Shown here: positions 2,503 through 9,761 of the stretch, piece after piece
How the letters are laid out: the number at the start of each line of letters is the position of its first letter
How positions within the stretch are numbered: the first letter of the stretch is position 1
Origin: a bacterium
Lineage (GTDB): Bacteria > Electryoneota > Electryoneia > Electryoneales > Electryoneaceae
Direction: 5' to 3'
NCBI GenBank assembly: GCA_963669175.1
Contig: OY769902.1
Span: forward strand, 1,856,001 to 1,920,000
DNA length: 64,000 nt
Program-made: the position numbers and the translations under genes
Notes under the pieces: generated by a model
What the model was told of the DNA's origin: nothing
What the model saw: only the letters and a program-made list of their open reading frames with translations
The model's database searches: none

Positions 2503-2737
2503 GGTATATACTCTCACGTTTGTTAAAAGTTTGGTAGGCCTAAAAATAAACGAATCAGATGTGTTTTGCACCTGTTTGGGAGACGGCGAGAGTCACCAGG
2601 AGACCGATTAAACGGCGCTGGAAATTAAACGTCGTATACGTGCTCAACCAGGAGAAACCCCCATCTCCATCAAGGAACAACAAACATCCACTCCCTCTCC
2701 TGGTCGAGAGGAGTGCGTGGTACCACCCAACCACGCC

Positions 2738-2770
2738 TGGAGCCCGGTCCAATGGCCGGGTTTCTTTTTT
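2738..2770 (+). terminator. Rho-independent terminator-like hairpin
   Basis: GGAGCCCGGTCC-AAT-GGCCGGGTTTC followed by a T-run. Confidence 0.6.
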
Positions 2771-2939
2771 GGGGGTGGTATGTGATACCGTGAAAACAAT
2801 TGGACGTATGCTTTTTTTCTATACCAACTTTCCTTTCACCTTGTATCCCATTCTCGTTTCGATTGCTATCAGAAATTCTTACGTTTCCATCTGGAGAGTA
2901 TCTTGTGGCAAACTTTATCTGAAGCGCCGGGGGCGAGGA

Positions 2940-5900
2940 ATGCGTATCTGGTTCAGACGGATGTTACCAGTCATGTTGGCGTTTTTCCTGTGCAGGGGAG
3001 GGAACACGATGCCTGTCACCTTTGATACGGCCGATCCGGTCGCTTCACCGGACGCAATTGTGCAGAGTGGAACCGCTCGCTTTACTATCCTCGCACCGGA
3101 TGTGATCCGTCTGGAGTGGTCTGAGAAAAAGCGATTTGAGGACCGTGCCAGCCTGACGTTTATCAACCGCCGTATCGAAACGCTCGGATCATTTGTCACG
3201 ATGGAGGAACGTGGCTGGCTTACCATCACTACCGAAGCCCTGCAACTCCGCTACAAGATCGGAAGCGGCAAATTTACCAGTAAGAACCTGGAAATTCGGC
3301 TTTTCGGCAAGAATACTCCGGACCACTGGAAGCCGGGGATGGAAAACACGGGCAACCTGGGCGGTACGGTACGAACGCTGGATATGGTGTCGGGAGCCAC
3401 CCCTTTGGAACGGGGCGTATTGTCCCGCGAAGGCTGGACACTTCTGGATGACAGCGGCACGCCAGTATTAAGTGACGATTCCCTGCGCTGGCCCAAACAG
3501 AGACGAGATAAAAACGGGATTGACTGGTATTTCTTCACCTATGGCCATGAGTATCAGCACGCCATGCAGAACTACACCGCTTTGACCGGTGCTGTTCCGG
3601 TCCCGCCACGGTGGGCATTCGGGAGCTGGTGGAGCCGCTATTGGGCGTATTCCGCCGCTGAGCTGAAAGAACTGATCGGCGAGTTTCACAAGAATGATGT
3701 TCCCCTGGATGTGCTTGTTGTGGACATGGACTGGCATCTTGAGGGCTGGACCGGGTACACCTGGAACCGTGAACTGTTTCCAGATCCGAAAGCTTTCCTG
3801 GCTTGGGTTCATGAGCAGGGCTTGCATGTCACGTTGAACCTGCATCCACACCAGGGGGTGGGAAAGCATGAAGAATGTTTCGTGGAATTCTGCGAAGCCA
3901 TGGGAATGGATCCTGCTTCCACGGACAATATCCCCTTCGATATCGCCAATCCCGCTTATATGAAGGCTTACTTTGGTATCCTGCATCACCCGTTGGAGGA
4001 GGAAGGCGTCGATTTCTGGTGGATCGACTGGCAACAGGGGGAGGTGTCTGGATTGAAGGGGCTTGATCCCTTGTTCTGGCTGAATCATCTACACTGGCGC
4101 GATATGGAAACCAGAGCGAAAGAAACGGGGAAACGTCCGCTTCTGTTCAGTCGTTGGGGTGGGCTCGGGTCGCACCGTTACCAGACCGGATTTTCCGGGG
4201 ATACCTATTGCGACTGGGCCTCGCTTGCGTTTCAGCCGTACTTCACCACAACCGCCGCCAATGTCGCCTACCCATTCTGGAGCCATGACATCGGTGGTCA
4301 TCAACCCGGCCCGGTAGAGGGGGAGTTGTATCTTCGCTGGGTCCAATTTGCCGTATTCAACCCGATTCTCCGAACCCATGCGACCAAGAATCCAGGAGCC
4401 GAACGTCGTATCTGGTCGTTCGATGATGTGTATTTCCAGGCAATGCGTGGCGCTTTCCAGCTACGTTACCAGCTCGCACCCTATATCTACCACAATGCTC
4501 ATGAGGCGTGGGCATCTACAACGCCACTGCTGAAACCACTTTACTACAAATGGCCGGAAGAGGAAGCGGCGTATGATTTCACGGATCAGTATCTCTTCGG
4601 CGCTGACATGCTGGTTGCACCGGTTATCTCCCCGGTTCAGCAGTCTACAGGCGTAGTCGCGTCTCATGTCTGGATGCCGCCGGGCGAGTGGATTCACTGG
4701 TTTACCGGGCAGCGATTCACCGGCCCGGATACGGTGATAGTCAATACGCCATTGGACCAGACGCCAGTATTTGTTCGCAGTGGGGCGATTATTCCCATGC
4801 AGAGGAAGACTGAACGCCTCGGCGAGACGATTCCTGATACGCTGGTCTTCAGGATGTTCCCGGGTGAGGGCGGTGAGATTCACCTGTATGAGGATGACGG
4901 TGTCAGCAATGCCTACCAAGGTGGGGTTCACAGTATTACCCCGATATCCTGGAAGCATGCCGGCCGTTTGATCAGCATCAGCATCAAGCCACGAGAAGGC
5001 AGCTTCGCAGACGCTCCGGAAAACCGCGTCTATGAATTCCGTTTCCCTTTCCAGTGGTTGCCGGACAAGGTGCAAGCCAACCGTGAGGATTTACCCCAGT
5101 TCTACGAGGAACCGCCAGTGGGGGAGAGTGGCTGGTGGTATGACGCGCATGAGATGATGATTGCTGTCCGGCTCAAGGAAAGGGCGGTATCCGATTCGCA
5201 AACGGTCACCATTTTCACCAAACGTGGGCTGGAACGGACCGATTTTGATGAGGGATTACGTGGCAGGTTGTTACGTTTGGAGCGGGCTGTCGAGCTGGCC
5301 GGTGAACAAACGCCCGAGCCTGCTCTGAAACTAATGGAGAAATGGCAACGGATTACCCACCCCAAGGCGCATCTTGATCACGCCTGGAGTTATCACGGTT
5401 TGGAAGACTCCGTATGGACCGAGGTTGTCGAGTCATTTGCGAATGCACAACTACCGGCAAGTACCCGGGAACAGGCACTGATTGCTCTGCTGGATATTTC
5501 TTTTGAAGTGATCCCCTTCAGCACAGAGCAGGGAGATTTTGCCTTTCGCGCTCAGCTTCATATGCTTGATCCGCTTGAACATATGTATGTCCATTTCGAC
5601 GCAGACTTGCCATCCGGATGGAGAGATATCACTCTTCGTTCCGCAGCATTGTTGCCTGTCCGAGCGGAAAAGCCGGAAGAATTTGTTGCTGTGCTGCGCG
5701 GAGTATCCGAGGTTCAGACAACTTCTGTTCACCTGGTTGCCAGGGTAAGTGTTGGCTATAGCGATGTTGAACTTGCTCATGATGAAGTGCTGTTCCCTGC
5801 GATCAATGCCTGGCATGTGCTGGCGCCGTTTGATAACCCGGGACGGCATTCACTGGAAGAAGAATTCCCGCCGGAAAAAACCATCGCTCTGTCTGATTCT

Positions 5901-6320
5901 TACCGTGGCAAAGCGGGAAAGACGATCACGTGGAACACGGTCAGAATGGCCCCGGGATCGGCGAACCGTAATGCGGATGACTTCTTCGTTGACTTGCATG
6001 AGGCGTCCGGCTCATATACCGAGGATGCCGTGGGCTATGGGTTTGTCTATCTCGACAGCCCACGTGAGCAGGATGCGCTACTCCTGTTGGGCTCGGATGA
6101 TGGGGTGAAGGTATGGCTGAATAACAAGCTGGTGCATGAGAATGAGGTTGGACGCGCGTATCGTCCCCGCGAGGATAGTATCCCGATTCATCTGCGCAAA
6201 GGGTTGAATGCTTTGCTGGTGAAAGTCAGCCAGGGGAACGGCGGCTGGGGGTTCGGCGCGCAGCTTGTGGATATGCAAGGGAAGCCGTTGCATGATGTTC
6301 GGGTGAAATTGCAGCCGTGA
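2940..6320 (+). CDS. Secreted glycoside hydrolase family 31 (alpha-glucosidase/xylosidase-like) with C-terminal beta-sandwich domain
   Basis: PPRWAFGSWWSRYW, VVDMDWH, nucleophile motif FWWIDWQ, acid/base FSGDT, SHDIGG, YEDDG. C-terminal LGSDDGVKVWLN...LLVKV domain. Signal-like N-terminus; start uncertain. Confidence 0.9.
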   Translation: MRIWFRRMLPVMLAFFLCRGGNTMPVTFDTADPVASPDAIVQSGTARFTILAPDVIRLEWSEKKRFEDRASLTFINRRIETLGSFVTMEERGWLTITTEALQLRYKIGSGKFTSKNLEIRLFGKNTPDHWKPGMENTGNLGGTVRTLDMVSGATPLERGVLSREGWTLLDDSGTPVLSDDSLRWPKQRRDKNGIDWYFFTYGHEYQHAMQNYTALTGAVPVPPRWAFGSWWSRYWAYSAAELKELIGEFHKNDVPLDVLVVDMDWHLEGWTGYTWNRELFPDPKAFLAWVHEQGLHVTLNLHPHQGVGKHEECFVEFCEAMGMDPASTDNIPFDIANPAYMKAYFGILHHPLEEEGVDFWWIDWQQGEVSGLKGLDPLFWLNHLHWRDMETRAKETGKRPLLFSRWGGLGSHRYQTGFSGDTYCDWASLAFQPYFTTTAANVAYPFWSHDIGGHQPGPVEGELYLRWVQFAVFNPILRTHATKNPGAERRIWSFDDVYFQAMRGAFQLRYQLAPYIYHNAHEAWASTTPLLKPLYYKWPEEEAAYDFTDQYLFGADMLVAPVISPVQQSTGVVASHVWMPPGEWIHWFTGQRFTGPDTVIVNTPLDQTPVFVRSGAIIPMQRKTERLGETIPDTLVFRMFPGEGGEIHLYEDDGVSNAYQGGVHSITPISWKHAGRLISISIKPREGSFADAPENRVYEFRFPFQWLPDKVQANREDLPQFYEEPPVGESGWWYDAHEMMIAVRLKERAVSDSQTVTIFTKRGLERTDFDEGLRGRLLRLERAVELAGEQTPEPALKLMEKWQRITHPKAHLDHAWSYHGLEDSVWTEVVESFANAQLPASTREQALIALLDISFEVIPFSTEQGDFAFRAQLHMLDPLEHMYVHFDADLPSGWRDITLRSAALLPVRAEKPEEFVAVLRGVSEVQTTSVHLVARVSVGYSDVELAHDEVLFPAINAWHVLAPFDNPGRHSLEEEFPPEKTIALSDSYRGKAGKTITWNTVRMAPGSANRNADDFFVDLHEASGSYTEDAVGYGFVYLDSPREQDALLLLGSDDGVKVWLNNKLVHENEVGRAYRPREDSIPIHLRKGLNALLVKVSQGNGGWGFGAQLVDMQGKPLHDVRVKLQP

Positions 6321-6511
6321 GATTTGAAAGATATTGTTTTTCTCGAAAGTTCTTGCTGTCTCGAGTAGGCCTTATACTTTCCCTTGATCTGGTATTTGTC
6401 ATAACGAAACTCCTTGCCCATGTAGACTTTCGGTACTGATATCATTTGAAATCTGCTACCCGACAATTTTAGCAGGCTTTAGCCTGCTTTTTTTAGCACC
6501 CGGCTTCAGCC

Positions 6512-6907
6512 CTGTCTCTTACCCACATCTTCTGAAAGCTGTATCAGTAAAAGAGTTGTGGACATAGCATTTTTAGAATCCCGGCGGGATTCCCTATTTT
6601 AGCATAGTGTACAGGCCGTCTGTTTGGCCTGTACACTATGTCAGGTATTCTAACGAATAATCAACCCTGGAAGGGTTGCATAATACGCGATTCATATTAG
6701 TACGTTCAATAAATACAGGAAATAACGCATTTTATATTCTATACAAACCAATTGGGTGTAAATTATACGTTATGCAACCCTTCCAGGGTTGAGATAAGGT
6801 TTGATCTTTTTCGTAGGGTAGACGCTAAACAGACAGCGTCAACCCTACGCTAAAATATACCACCCCCTCTGGGGTGGCAGAAACACGAAGATGTGAGCAA
6901 GAGACAG
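6512..6907. mobile_element. Non-autonomous IS4-family (IS50/Tn5-like) MITE
   Basis: 21-bp terminal inverted repeats CTGTCTCTTACCCACATCTTC / GAAGATGTGAGCAAGAGACAG (19/21 identical). Flanking direct repeat GGCTTCAGCC at 6502-6511 and 6908-6917. No ORF. Confidence 0.8.
6661..6877. repeat. REP/REPIN-like hairpin cluster inside the MITE
   Basis: Inverted pair TCAACCCTGGAAGGGTTGCATAA (6661-6683) / TTATGCAACCCTTCCAGGGTTGA (6770-6792), plus hairpins at 6812-6849 and 6860-6877. Confidence 0.7.
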
Positions 6908-7109
6908 GGCTTCAGCCGGGGTGTTCGTGGTTGTAAAGAAGTGGCGAGCGCCCTTCAGGGTGCCTTCCGGAATCAGGATTTATAACAGGCAAGCACGCTA
7001 AAGCGCGCTCAGAATGGTTGTCGGCATCTTATCACCCCGGCTGAAGCCGGGTGCTAAGAAGAGCCTGCTGAAGCAGGCTGATATAGTTGTTCTGCTATGT
7101 AAACAGTCA

Positions 7110-7314
7110 AGGGTGTAAAGAGCCTTTGTATCGTCCCATGTGCCGTTCTGCTATTCGTGCTCGTGGCACAGGTTTTTTGTTCGCACGGAACAGCGGCGCC
7201 CTAAACTCGAATCGTTGTCAAGCAACAGAATAACTACCAGGGTCGCGTGTTCCCAATGGCATCGGACGATTCAATCACAATCTATGCTTTACCTACCTGC
7301 CAGCAGTGCTGGGG
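7110..7314 (-). ncRNA. Putative bridge/seek RNA of the IS110 element
   Basis: About 200-nt non-coding region downstream of the transposase, with two internal loops whose strands match the target (TAGTTGTTCT|CGATT) and donor (CT|GCTAT) junctions. Confidence 0.7.
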
Positions 7315-8376
7315 TTATACGCAGGCAGGATTGTAGTCTTGTTCTTTGACCAGCATGGCCCACAGTATCACGGCTAGTTTTCGTGCCATGGCGACGATCG
7401 CCACTTTCCGTGTTTTCCCGGCATGGATCGCATCGTATTTCTTCTTTGCATACGGATCTTTTTGCACCCAACGCCACGCAGCTTCGACCAATAGTTTTCG
7501 TAGATGGGACGGTCCCCAGTGGGTAATGTGTCCCATATGGCGTGTGTTGGCGCTTGACCATTCACACGGCGTCAAGCCAAGATGTGCGCCGACTTGCTTA
7601 CCGGATGCGAAGCGTTCGGGACGATACATCTCGGTCACGAAGGCGTTCACGGTCAACTCGCCCACTCCCTTCACCTGGCGCAGGCGCTGGGTACGGTCCC
7701 GATACGTTGCGGACGCATTCATCGCCTTGATCGCTTTGGTGATCACCTTGAGTTGCTGTTCAATGGCCTCCAGCTCATCGAGAGCAACATCAATGGCTAT
7801 CCGTGTCGCGGCCAGACAATCACACGTTCGCAACCAGCGCCGGTATTCCTTTGTCCAATAGCGTTGCGGCGGAAACGGTGACTGTAAACCGTGAAACAAT
7901 AGCAGACTCTTGATTCGGTTTTTGACCCGAACGCGATCATTCATCACCTGGTCACGGGTGCGAGACAACTGACGATCCGCCTCTTCCTGTTCTGTGGGGA
8001 CATGTACCCAGGTACGAGGTGGTGTCCAGAACATGTGGGCCAAGGTAAGGGCATCCAGATGATCGGTCTTCTGCTGCTTCGCTTGCGCCCCTTTGGGAAC
8101 TTGGCTGGGCGGCGCGATCTGGCAGTCAACACCTTGGCCGATCAGGTAACGACAGAGGCCAAAGCCGGTGAGGCCCGCTTCATAACACGCCCACATGCGG
8201 CAGTTGGGAAAACGGGCAAAGAAGCGTTCCCAGGCGGCTGAGTCATGCTTGATCCGATTCTCAAAGAGCACTTCACCAGTCTGGGTGTCGAGCACAACGG
8301 CGAAAGAAGTCTGCGAATCAACATCCAGACCTATAGACAATGAACGGTCCGCTGCAATAACTTGGTTCTTCGACAT
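7315..8376 (-). CDS. IS110-family transposase (DEDD recombinase)
   Basis: IGLDVD, CYEAG, KTDHLDA (RuvC-like DEDD), VKGVG, GLTPCEWSS (catalytic Ser loop), LVEAAW, AIVAMARKLA. Confidence 0.96.
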   Translation of the reverse strand: MSKNQVIAADRSLSIGLDVDSQTSFAVVLDTQTGEVLFENRIKHDSAAWERFFARFPNCRMWACYEAGLTGFGLCRYLIGQGVDCQIAPPSQVPKGAQAKQQKTDHLDALTLAHMFWTPPRTWVHVPTEQEEADRQLSRTRDQVMNDRVRVKNRIKSLLLFHGLQSPFPPQRYWTKEYRRWLRTCDCLAATRIAIDVALDELEAIEQQLKVITKAIKAMNASATYRDRTQRLRQVKGVGELTVNAFVTEMYRPERFASGKQVGAHLGLTPCEWSSANTRHMGHITHWGPSHLRKLLVEAAWRWVQKDPYAKKKYDAIHAGKTRKVAIVAMARKLAVILWAMLVKEQDYNPACV

Positions 8377-8463
8377 GGCGCTTCTCCTTGTGTTGGAAAA
8401 ATGGAATACTGCTAAGATAGCAGTTCCAACACGACTTGATGCGCCTGTCGTTTAACATAGGAA

Positions 8464-8792
8464 CTCGATTTTATTCCGTCATAATAGAGAATGCCGGGAA
8501 AAGAGGACGGGATCCTTTTCCTCGCGCGCATATGAAACACCAATGCGTTGGGCGTGGCCGGGCTGCTGCTTAACCCTTTTCCTCGCGCGCATATGAAACA
8601 CCAATGCGTTGGGCGTGGCCGGGCTGCTGCTTGACCCTTTTCCTCGCGCGCATATGAAACACTCTCGCCGAACTTGTGGGAAAGGAAACTTTCCCCTTTT
8701 TCCATATCCTTATCCTTTATTCCAACCATATGGTTGACCTTTCACTGATCTGGCACATGACCACATGACGGAATAATAATGGGAATCGCTAT
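8464..8792. repeat. Dispersed REP cassette family C, copy 1 (with internal 61-bp tandem duplication)
   Basis: Near-identical to 55513-55826 at both ends (CTCGATTTTATTCCG...GGAATAATAATGGGAATCGCTATA). 27-bp unit at 8514, 8575 and 8636. Confidence 0.85.
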
Positions 8793-8819
8793 ATCTCAGA
8801 AAATTACTTGAAATTTTAA

Positions 8820-9761
8820 TCATCTATTCCACAACCTCTTCATTTTGGCTTCGAAACTGTTGTATTCGGTCGCCTCTTTTTCCAGATCGCGCAGGTATTG
8901 CTCCGCTGCTTCCTCACCTTTTTTAATCAGGGACGGCAGATCATCAAAGTCGAACATGCTGATATGACGGACGTCCGGCTCGATTATATCATCCGCCCAG
9001 CGCAGGTAGGTCCGGTTGTTACGGACATCCATGATTTCGTTCGCACGTACGACCACATCCACACTACTCTTGAACGGTCCTTCACGATGGACACTGGGAA
9101 GCACATTAACCGCGATGACCCAGTGGGGCGTGTCATTGTTGCGTCGCGGCACCGGGACATTGGCCGTAATACCGCCATCGATCAGCATTCGGTCGCCGAT
9201 GGTAACCGGTTCGAAAATACCCGGAATGGCAGAGGAGGCGGCTGCAGCTATAGCGAGATCGCCGGAATCAAGCACCACGGAACGTCCGCTGTAGAGATCA
9301 GATGCGAGGCAGAGAAACGGAATCTTCAGATCAGCGAAAGTTTTACCTTCGAAAAATTCCTGCAGGAGTTTGATCAGCGTTTTTGCAGGGATCAAACCGG
9401 CAGAACGTGTGACCCAGCCAAAGGTGATCAGTCGCAGGAACACTTCGCCAAGCTCCCAGTTCAGGTTGATTCTGTGTTCAGATTCGAGCATACGCTTCAA
9501 CCCGAGTCGTTTCTGCAAGACGTCCCGAACGAACAGATCTGCAGCTTCTTCAAGTTCTTCCACAGAAGCATGTAGACCGTAAAGACCGCCGATGATTGCG
9601 CCCATGCTGACACCGGTGATCAGGTCCGGTTTCCAGCCATTACGTTCCAGCACCTTGATGACACCGATATGAGCGAGGCCACGCGCCCCGCCACCCGCCA
9701 ACGCCAGCACTTTCGCGCCGCCATCCGGCTTCACCCGGTCAACGTATTTTGAATCCAGCAT
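8820..9761 (-). CDS. Patatin-like phospholipase
   Basis: GGGARGLAHIGV, GVSMG nucleophile elbow, ASSAIPGIF, DGG. Confidence 0.93.
   Translation of the reverse strand: MLDSKYVDRVKPDGGAKVLALAGGGARGLAHIGVIKVLERNGWKPDLITGVSMGAIIGGLYGLHASVEELEEAADLFVRDVLQKRLGLKRMLESEHRINLNWELGEVFLRLITFGWVTRSAGLIPAKTLIKLLQEFFEGKTFADLKIPFLCLASDLYSGRSVVLDSGDLAIAAAASSAIPGIFEPVTIGDRMLIDGGITANVPVPRRNNDTPHWVIAVNVLPSVHREGPFKSSVDVVVRANEIMDVRNNRTYLRWADDIIEPDVRHISMFDFDDLPSLIKKGEEAAEQYLRDLEKEATEYNSFEAKMKRLWNR

Follow-up and report, generated by a model that had tools for sequence, protein, structure and literature searches.

The DNA analysed here, referred to as the window, is a stretch of 64,000 nucleotides (nt) from contig OY769902.1 of the bacterial assembly GCA_963669175.1, and it carries an insertion sequence of the IS110 family with a length of 1370 base pairs (bp) at 7094-8463 on the minus strand. 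The element comprises a transposase gene with a non-coding region of 221 nt downstream (7094-7314), compared to 87 nt upstream of the gene (8377-8463). It is very probably an active or recently active IS110-family element with an IS1111-like organisation, the downstream region of which encodes a bridge RNA, i.e. a 'long seekRNA'. The gene, the junctions and the ends of the element are the following.

7315-8376, minus strand: transposase/recombinase gene, 353 amino acids, ATG start, with a DEDD RuvC-like domain and a C-terminal Tnp domain
7084-7093, plus strand: left target half including the core CT, TAGTTGTTCT
8464-8470, plus strand: core CT and right target half, CTCGATT, start of an intergenic repeat
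7092-7093 and 8464-8465: core dinucleotide CT (AG on the transposase strand), one per junction
7095-7104, plus strand: arm of the subterminal inverted repeat, CTATGTAAAC, read from the sequence
8450-8460, plus strand: arm of the subterminal inverted repeat, GTTTAACATAG, partner of 7095-7104 with one extra base

Twelve copies of the element were found in the 5.45-Mb genome, showing 99-100% identity (0-10 differences) over exactly 7094-8463, and the flanks of all copies diverge exactly at these two ends. A separate unitig of 1373 nt in public contigs, spanning 7094-8466, agrees with the element boundaries. All copies were oriented as the plus strand of the window, which was taken as the chemical 'top' strand. 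In this orientation, the left flank reads ATAG[T/C/A][T/A][G/A]TTC[T/C] in all 12 copies and the right flank CTCGA in ten copies, CTCGG in one and CTCTG in one, the target on the plus strand being TAGTT(A/G)TT-CT-CGA(A/T)T. The dinucleotide at the junctions is CT on the right in 12 of 12 copies and on the left in eight. Eight copies sit within the opening bases of a ~200-nt intergenic repeat, and three adjoin another repeat. A degenerate motif of the ~200-nt repeat showed 69 matches in the genome, and many repeat units are empty, reading ...TAGCTGTTCT directly followed by CGATTTTATTCCG... with a single CT (e.g. ...GTTCT followed by CGATTTT...). Insertion is site-specific and comprises no duplication beyond the shared core dinucleotide, as observed for the 12 copies and for the empty sites with their single CT. 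A preliminary description of this DNA, made from the sequence alone, had proposed to check whether further copies sit in TTCT-CGA sites and had named insertion at unrelated sites as its refutation; all 12 copies share the site specified by loop 1 of the RNA described below, and the refutation failed. Repeated extragenic sequences are the usual targets of the IS110 family, as is known for IS621. ISPpu9 is likewise described as targeting repeated extragenic sequences (PMC12288879).

The transposase frame is open in all 12 copies, and its product was matched by PF01548 (E 5.3e-18), by PF02371 (E 8e-20) and by the NCBIfam model NF033542 'IS110 family RNA-guided transposase' with 247.8 bits at a cut-off of 140, which bears out the intact IS110-family transposase proposed before. 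In an alignment of four homologues the residues D18, E66, D105, D108 and S275 were invariant, and S275 aligned with the serine of the ESG motif in the IS621 chain 8wt6. The catalytic roles of the residues were taken from PMC11208158, the N-terminal alignment to IS621 not being significant; similarity to the IS621 and ISCro4 chains was detectable in the C-terminal domain only, with an E value of about 3e-9. The transposase contains the motif GLTPCEWSSA, in which SA stands after the catalytic serine, compared to the usual SG/TG (GL-P----S(T)G). Among named plasmid transposases, the nearest ones were those of ISEc45 with 31%, IS5708 with 29% and IS4321/IS5075 with 25-26% identity. A homologue at an E value of at most 1e-30 was present in 6 of 79 genomes of the phylum, the source genome counted. 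A scan of genome contigs with the single transposase protein resulted in 3 loci only, and a metagenome scan with the four-protein alignment resulted in 57 loci, the transposases of which are 29-55% identical.

The downstream RNA and its guides

Within the non-coding region downstream of the transposase gene, an RNA of about 147 nt was delimited, in line with the preliminary description, which had placed the RNA downstream as in IS1111. All strings quoted there for the two loops were found again at their places. The parts of the RNA, all on the minus strand, are listed here from its 5' to its 3' end.

7126-7272: bridge/seek RNA, about 147 nt, limits set by the covariance model
7258-7270: 5' strands of the closing helices, AUCGUCC (7270-7264) and UGCC (7261-7258)
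7242-7237: 5' segment CCCUGG of loop 1
7227-7236: left target guide UAGUUAUUCU including the core CU, same sense as the plus-strand left flank
7214-7226: inner hairpin of the target loop, GUUG-cuuga-CAAC, from sequence and fold
7213: G in loop 1
7206-7212: right target guide AUUCGAG, complementary to the plus-strand CT-CGA(A/T)T
7205-7203 and 7202-7199: end of loop 1, UUU and AGGG
7204-7205: handshake guide UU of the target loop, fits donor AA (8462-8463), not target TT
7186-7183: 5' segment GUGC of loop 2
7182-7170: loop 2 stretch GAACAAAAAACCU
7171-7180: left donor strand ACAAAAAACC, A-rich, core at 7172-7171, partial match to CATAGGAA-CT
7157-7169: hairpin between the donor guides, GUGC-cacga-GCAC, from sequence
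7148-7154: right donor guide AUAGCAG, after the GA that follows the donor hairpin, equal to element end plus core (7098-7092)
7146-7147: handshake guide AA of the donor junction, fits target TT (7090-7091), not donor AA
7143-7140: GCAC, preceded by AACG, 3' side of loop 2
7130-7144: 3' strands of the closing helices, GGCA (7144-7141) and GGACGAU (7136-7130), paired with the 5' strands in the minimum-energy fold

The structure was drawn by hand with five helices on one member of the family, and the covariance model, termed R1, comprises 152 positions and 31 pairs. In the window, the sequence of which was a seed of the model, R1 gave a single hit with 79.8 bits, and in the genome it gave 12 hits, all inside the 12 elements and with no solo copy of the RNA among them. 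The RNA was found by R1 in 51 of the 57 sources of relatives. In the resulting 51-hit alignment 78.6% of the family cells are paired compared to 67.8% after shuffling, the number of pairs with compensatory changes is 26 of 31, and 0 of 500 shuffles reached any of five measures, while sliding the partners by 1-3 columns as a control led to 33-43% paired cells. The RNA of the window forms 24 of the 31 model pairs. For the inner target hairpin, which corresponds to family helix 6, compensatory changes were determined in 5 of 5 pairs with 86.6% of the cells paired, and for the donor hairpin, corresponding to family helix 7, in 4 of 5 pairs with 84% of the cells paired. A search of Rfam 15 over 6500-9000 showed no bridge-RNA family among the hits, the library not having been checked for holding one, and gave a weak uxuA match outside the element.

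Compared to the left flanks of the 12 copies, the left target guide showed an agreement of 10/10 in two copies, 9/10 in three, 8/10 in six and 7/10 in one, while the right target guide is complementary to the right junction at 6/7 in ten copies and 5/7 in two. The 9/10 match to the left flank of the present copy (7084-7093) had been described before and withstood a chance test, in which the non-coding region was shuffled 20000 times with its dinucleotides preserved. A left-flank match of at least 9/10 was reached in 56 shuffles, and matches to both target halves, ordered and spaced as observed, in 2.

On the plus strand, the donor junction of the circle would read ...CATAGGAA-CT-GCTATG.... The right donor guide AUAGCAG is complementary to CTGCTAT at 7092-7098 in 7 of 7 positions, a match to the end heptamer that was reached in 176 of the 20000 shuffles. 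Both earlier statements on these guides, a perfect fit of the right one and a merely partial fit of the left one, were found to be correct. According to the family register, the core of the left donor strand lies at 7172-7171 and base 7170 is a spacer. The earlier statement that CU abuts the inner stem in both loops holds for loop 1, while the pair pointed out in loop 2 is not the core by this register. Beyond the core, the left donor strand matches the donor at two adjacent A and one further A only. Base 7171 is the sole RNA position varying among the 12 copies, with C in three copies including the present one and U in nine; the U form fits the donor core better and also shows a higher score with R1 (82.0 compared to 79.8 bits). 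The three copies with the C form are mutually identical over the whole element, and either this variant still moves or it borrows the RNA of other copies.

For the relatives, the four guide strands were read from the model alignment and compared with the flanks or ends of the respective locus, using the longest exact match, cognate versus non-cognate, and 5000 permutations, with identical rows and guide strings collapsed. The left target guide showed a mean of 6.47 for cognate and 3.13 for non-cognate DNA (n=36), the right target guide 4.89 and 3.08 (n=28), the left donor guide 3.95 and 3.10 (n=21) and the right donor guide 6.74 and 5.03 (n=27), with 0 of 5000 permutations as high in each of the four cases. 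Covariation across homologues, a check that the preliminary description had proposed, holds for each of the four guides and the flanks or ends of its own locus. In addition, an unbiased scan was performed, in which every RNA column was compared with every DNA position in both senses; among many clade-level correlations it recovered the diagonals expected from the layout, each in the strand sense expected. Columns 55-60, belonging to the left target guide, were complementary to positions +6 to +1 of the downstream flank, and columns 120-123, belonging to the right target guide, had the same sense as positions -3 to -1 of the upstream flank. On the donor side, column 175 was complementary to the core (observed 1.0), column 171 was complementary to base +3 of the element (0.86 observed compared to 0.46 expected), and columns 210-214 had the same sense as the element end plus core. 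The left ends of the loci had been placed by a gapped match of the inverted repeat, with shifts by eye of 7 bases for L067 and of 1 base for L062/L065. Locus L053, the downstream flank of which is another element copy, was dropped from the column scan and from the handshake counts given below.

Over the 420 nt downstream of the gene, two occurrences of the right donor guide's heptamer, in most cases ATAGCAG, were counted in 45 of 67 oriented loci: one is part of the RNA, and the other consists of the element's final five bases and the core. Variants of the heptamer change together at both places, namely ATAGG+AA in L057, ATAGG+AG in L077, ATAGT+AG in L088/91/92/93 and CATAAGG in L087. In the metagenome locus L057 the core is AA, not AG, and a matching change is present in both right guides, at both junctions and in the left donor strand. 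L057 exemplifies a naturally reprogrammed core.

For IS621, handshake guides have been described 3' of the right guides, which pair with non-cognate DNA after top-strand exchange, while a handshake pairing with cognate DNA blocks recombination (PMC11208158). In the 12 copies analysed here, TT precedes the core without exception, i.e. the bases that the AA of the donor junction would fit. Within the family, column 215, following the right donor guide, agrees with the target flank's first base (0.84 observed compared to 0.39 expected), and columns 126-127, following the right target guide, equal the first two bases of the other end of the element. The agreement of the four handshake bases with the two kinds of DNA was as follows.

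Donor, first base: non-cognate 37/45, cognate 4/31
Donor, second base: non-cognate 9/45, cognate 5/31
Target loop, first base: non-cognate 24/31, cognate 8/45
Target loop, second base: non-cognate 26/31, cognate 10/45

The handshake signal, which was described for orthologues of the IS110 group, appears to carry over to an IS1111-like element.

Joined ends and the proposed mechanism

A candidate promoter would be formed only on joining of the two ends of the element.

7105-7110, minus strand: -35 hexamer TTGACT
8454-8459, minus strand: -10 hexamer TATGTT

With the ends joined through one core, TTGACT (7110-7105) is located 17 nt from TATGTT (8459-8454). For 25 of the 33 distinct end pairs among the relatives, joining could likewise give an arrangement of the form TTGAC(N)-17/18-TAnnnT; ISEc11 and ISEc21 are known to have a junction promoter (PMC11187229). 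If IS621 and ISEc11 are taken as analogues, the element would be excised as a circle, in which the joined ends would create the TTGACT-17-TATGTT promoter, presumably active and transcribing the transposase gene and then the RNA. The RNA produced in this way would be bound by the protein, and a recombinase tetramer loaded with it would synapse the circle junction with the target and exchange strands at the CT core. Following the first exchange, non-cognate DNA would be the pairing partner of the handshake bases; this order of strand exchange is predicted from the same analogy, and so is a programmability of the guides.

Two terminator-like sites were found in the linear element, which is the chance level. 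The A-rich left donor strand was also considered as a plus-strand terminator consisting of the hairpin 7157-7169 and a T run, and this was rejected as not above chance. A further hairpin with a T run at 8408-8424 (minus strand) falls into the leader that separates the start codon of the transposase from the predicted junction promoter; it could attenuate expression, the number of such sites being at chance level. Among the contigs of four public runs, none showed this particular site empty. One RNA run contained two 151-nt contigs with 95-99% likeness, both inside the transposase gene only, which are uninformative on expression.

Alternative readings and relation to known systems

A number of observations weigh against the reading of the downstream region as a bridge RNA of an active element. 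The 6/7 match of the right target guide to CTCGATT (8464-8470), pointed out in the preliminary description, does exist, but taken alone it is not significant, as at least 6/7 matches to the right flank were reached in 3967 of the 20000 shuffles. The left donor guide of the present copy is weak, with a longest exact match of 3 nt and with A opposite two donor G, and its second core position is C (CC, not CU). At the left junction, CC was found instead of CT in 4 of 12 copies; these CC junctions suggest insertion at sites where the second core base mismatches the donor and where the target base was retained. With regard to the fold, the alignment from which the paired cells and compensatory changes were counted had been fitted to the hand-drawn structure and consists of related sequences, so that these figures lean towards the structure. 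RNAalifold predicted 0 pairs on a plain MAFFT alignment, and the minimum-energy fold of 7094-7314 was no stabler than shuffles (z = -0.04). The relatives are not independent, and the permutation counts for the guides overstate the significance. Fifteen loci without a placed left end (L023, L044, L045, L046, L047, L050, L053, L054, L059, L061, L066, L077, L079, L082 and L087) were omitted from the left-end and upstream-flank tests. No sigma-70-like site was found when the linear element was scanned for promoters, and neither an end-to-end joint nor a transcript of the RNA was found in the public data, which comprised assembled contigs of four runs. Beside ISEc45, IS5708 and IS5075, R1 found nothing, the best score being 6.9 bits at an E value of 0.24. 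Since R1 gave no hit there, a homology to the experimentally studied seekRNAs is argued from the architecture only.

The donor region can be drawn in two ways. The preliminary description had closed loop 2 by GUGC (7186-7183) and GCAC (7143-7140), which results in two simple internal loops in series as in IS621, for which a simple internal loop is described (PMC11208160). Although this 4-bp helix can form in the present copy and pairing is possible in 72.4% of the family cells if it is slid by one column, the closure as drawn is paired in 31.1% of the cells, compared to 96.7%, with 18 compensatory cells, for the long-range closing helix (family helix 1), to which the alignment was fitted. In the present RNA the long-range option comprises 11 bp (4+7) compared to 4 bp, and it is the one picked by the minimum-energy fold. 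Furthermore, donor-binding bases are found in a multi-loop in many IS1111 orthologues (Durrant et al., PMC11208160). The simple loop is considered unlikely, and the closure by GUGC and GCAC was given up; a three-way junction that holds the donor guides and has the long-range helix as its closure is the more likely arrangement.

A more far-reaching alternative would be that the target stem-loop alone is functional as a short seekRNA, while the protein reads the ends via the inverted repeats and the flanking target halves, and that AUAGCAG and the A-rich strands are not guides at all. Short seekRNAs of 82-96 nt are predominant on IS1111-type transposases (PMC11187229, PMC13604230), the left donor match of this element is weak, and its subterminal inverted repeats are clear. 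This explanation is nevertheless regarded as improbable, as changes of the right donor heptamer go along with changes of the element end in several lineages (ATAGG+AA, ATAGG+AG, ATAGT+AG), covariation with the left end is seen for the left donor column 171 and for the core columns, and compensatory changes are present in the helices around the donor strands. Moreover, in 37 of 45 rows the base next to the right donor guide on its 3' side agrees with the target, which is understandable only if the donor part of the RNA meets DNA. It is highly improbable that the RNA is a hitch-hiking small-RNA module which is dispensable for transposition, as described for Ssr9 of ISPpu9, a downstream small RNA gene that also occurs alone in the genome (PMC12288879). 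In contrast to that case, all 12 R1 hits lie inside elements without any solo copy, the RNA is located within the boundaries common to all copies, and its loops match and covary with target and ends. The earlier interpretation as a bridge recombinase with its RNA is supported, with corrections to the architecture of the donor region, the register and the strand order, which is that of IS1111.

In the orientation of the transposase, the partner of the 5' target guide is the top strand and that of the 3' guide the bottom strand. A top-strand guide located 5' of the bottom-strand guide is the order of IS1111-type seekRNAs, while the reverse order is found in the IS110 type (PMC11187229), and subterminal inverted repeats of 7-17 bp are described for the IS1111 group (PMC11208160). 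The organisation of the element agrees with IS1111 in its non-coding region downstream of the gene, its subterminal inverted repeats and its guide order, and in these three respects it resembles ISEc11, ISPa11, ISKpn4 and ISPst6 (PMC11187229). Further similarities to the IS1111 seekRNA elements of that paper are the transposase of about 340-350 amino acids, the long RNA of about 150-170 nt, the site-specific insertion without longer duplication and the promoter at the circle junction, which is predicted here. In contrast to the named IS1111 relatives, the transposase is only 25-31% identical, R1 finds nothing beside them, and the SA motif is present; these identities refer to ISEc45, IS5708 and IS4321/IS5075, the comparison with ISEc11 and the other elements of PMC11187229 being based on their published description. 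The target differs as well, being a host intergenic repeat of another kind than the targets of the IS1111 seekRNA elements.

With IS621 (PMC11208160, PMC11208158) the element shares a longer 5' guide in top-strand sense and a shorter complementary 3' guide, with the CT core in both, a hairpin between the guides, and two-base handshake guides 3' of the right guides matching non-cognate but not cognate DNA. The DEDD residues and the serine are kept, and in both cases the target lies in a repeated extragenic element. Unlike in IS621, the gene has the RNA downstream of it, the cassette of gene and RNA is inverted relative to the core polarity, the donor guides lie probably in a three-way junction with a short and degenerate left donor guide, and the protein similarity (E ~3e-9) is confined to the C-terminal domain. 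ISPpu9 with Ssr9 (Pares-Guillen et al. 2025, PMC12288879) is similar with respect to the extragenic repeats and the small RNA gene downstream. Ssr9 is reported to be dispensable, to occur solo and to be separately mobile, and the ISPpu9 circles to lack a junction promoter, whereas the present RNA carries guides and has no solo copies, and the element has a predicted junction promoter.

Systems of this kind are not new, since IS110/IS1111 elements have been described as RNA-guided recombination systems in 2024 (PMC11187229, PMC11208160) and a bridge RNA was then predicted in the right end of 93% of the catalogued IS1111 elements (PMC11208160). In the literature on Calditrich*/Caldithrix, none of the matches listed joins the name with 'bridge RNA', no search having been aimed at the exact element; one general survey of insertion sequences among these matches holds a Calditrich* term. 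The element represents a clean natural example from a little-studied lineage, with no named relative above 31% identity, 12 intact copies and visible empty sites. In about 50 relatives, covariation of all four guides and signals at both handshake positions can be recognised from sequences alone. The family may be used as a set of natural pairs of guide and target by those who mine compact recombinases for genome engineering; in terms of host biology, the element is an ordinary insertion sequence.

It is conceivable, if rather doubtful, that the family forms a distinct IS1111-type bridge clade, covering Calditrichota-type genomes and many metagenome contigs. Such a clade would combine all six guide elements of IS621, both handshake guides among them, with donor guides in a three-way junction, a very short left donor guide tolerating mismatches, and mismatches in the core, as seen in the CC junctions of 4 of 12 copies and in the C/U polymorphism of the left donor core. 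If this were true, the recognition of the left donor and of the core would be naturally relaxed, and about 35 natural pairs of guide and target would be available for deriving engineering rules of the IS1111 branch.

Surroundings of the element

Next to the insertion sequence, an open reading frame of 1253 amino acids is located at 2559-6320 (plus strand) and another one of 313 amino acids at 8820-9761 (minus strand), the latter being patatin-like by eye. Neither of them is interrupted by the insertion sequence.

The ~200-nt target repeat (window 8464-8800) is rich in the inverted motifs GGAAAAGG and CCTTTTCC and showed no Rfam hit; it may be a MITE, a small-RNA gene or a REP-like element. Its start looks promoter-like, comprising TTGCTG and CATAAT with 17-18 nt between them. 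A 59-nt unit, TTTTCCTCGCGCGCATATGAAACAC..., is present about three times in tandem at 8517-8690, compared to once in the other repeat copies shown.

To the left of the insertion sequence, at 7009-7080 (minus strand), a two-hairpin element, AGCCTGCTTCAGCAGGCT ... CACCCGGCTTnAGCCGGGTG, was observed, which recurs beside several copies of the insertion sequence and is also found to the right of three other copies. It gave the sub-threshold match to uxuA of Rfam (24.9 bits, E 0.08). At genome position 4232940, an 18-nt unit beside the two-hairpin element is repeated 9 times.

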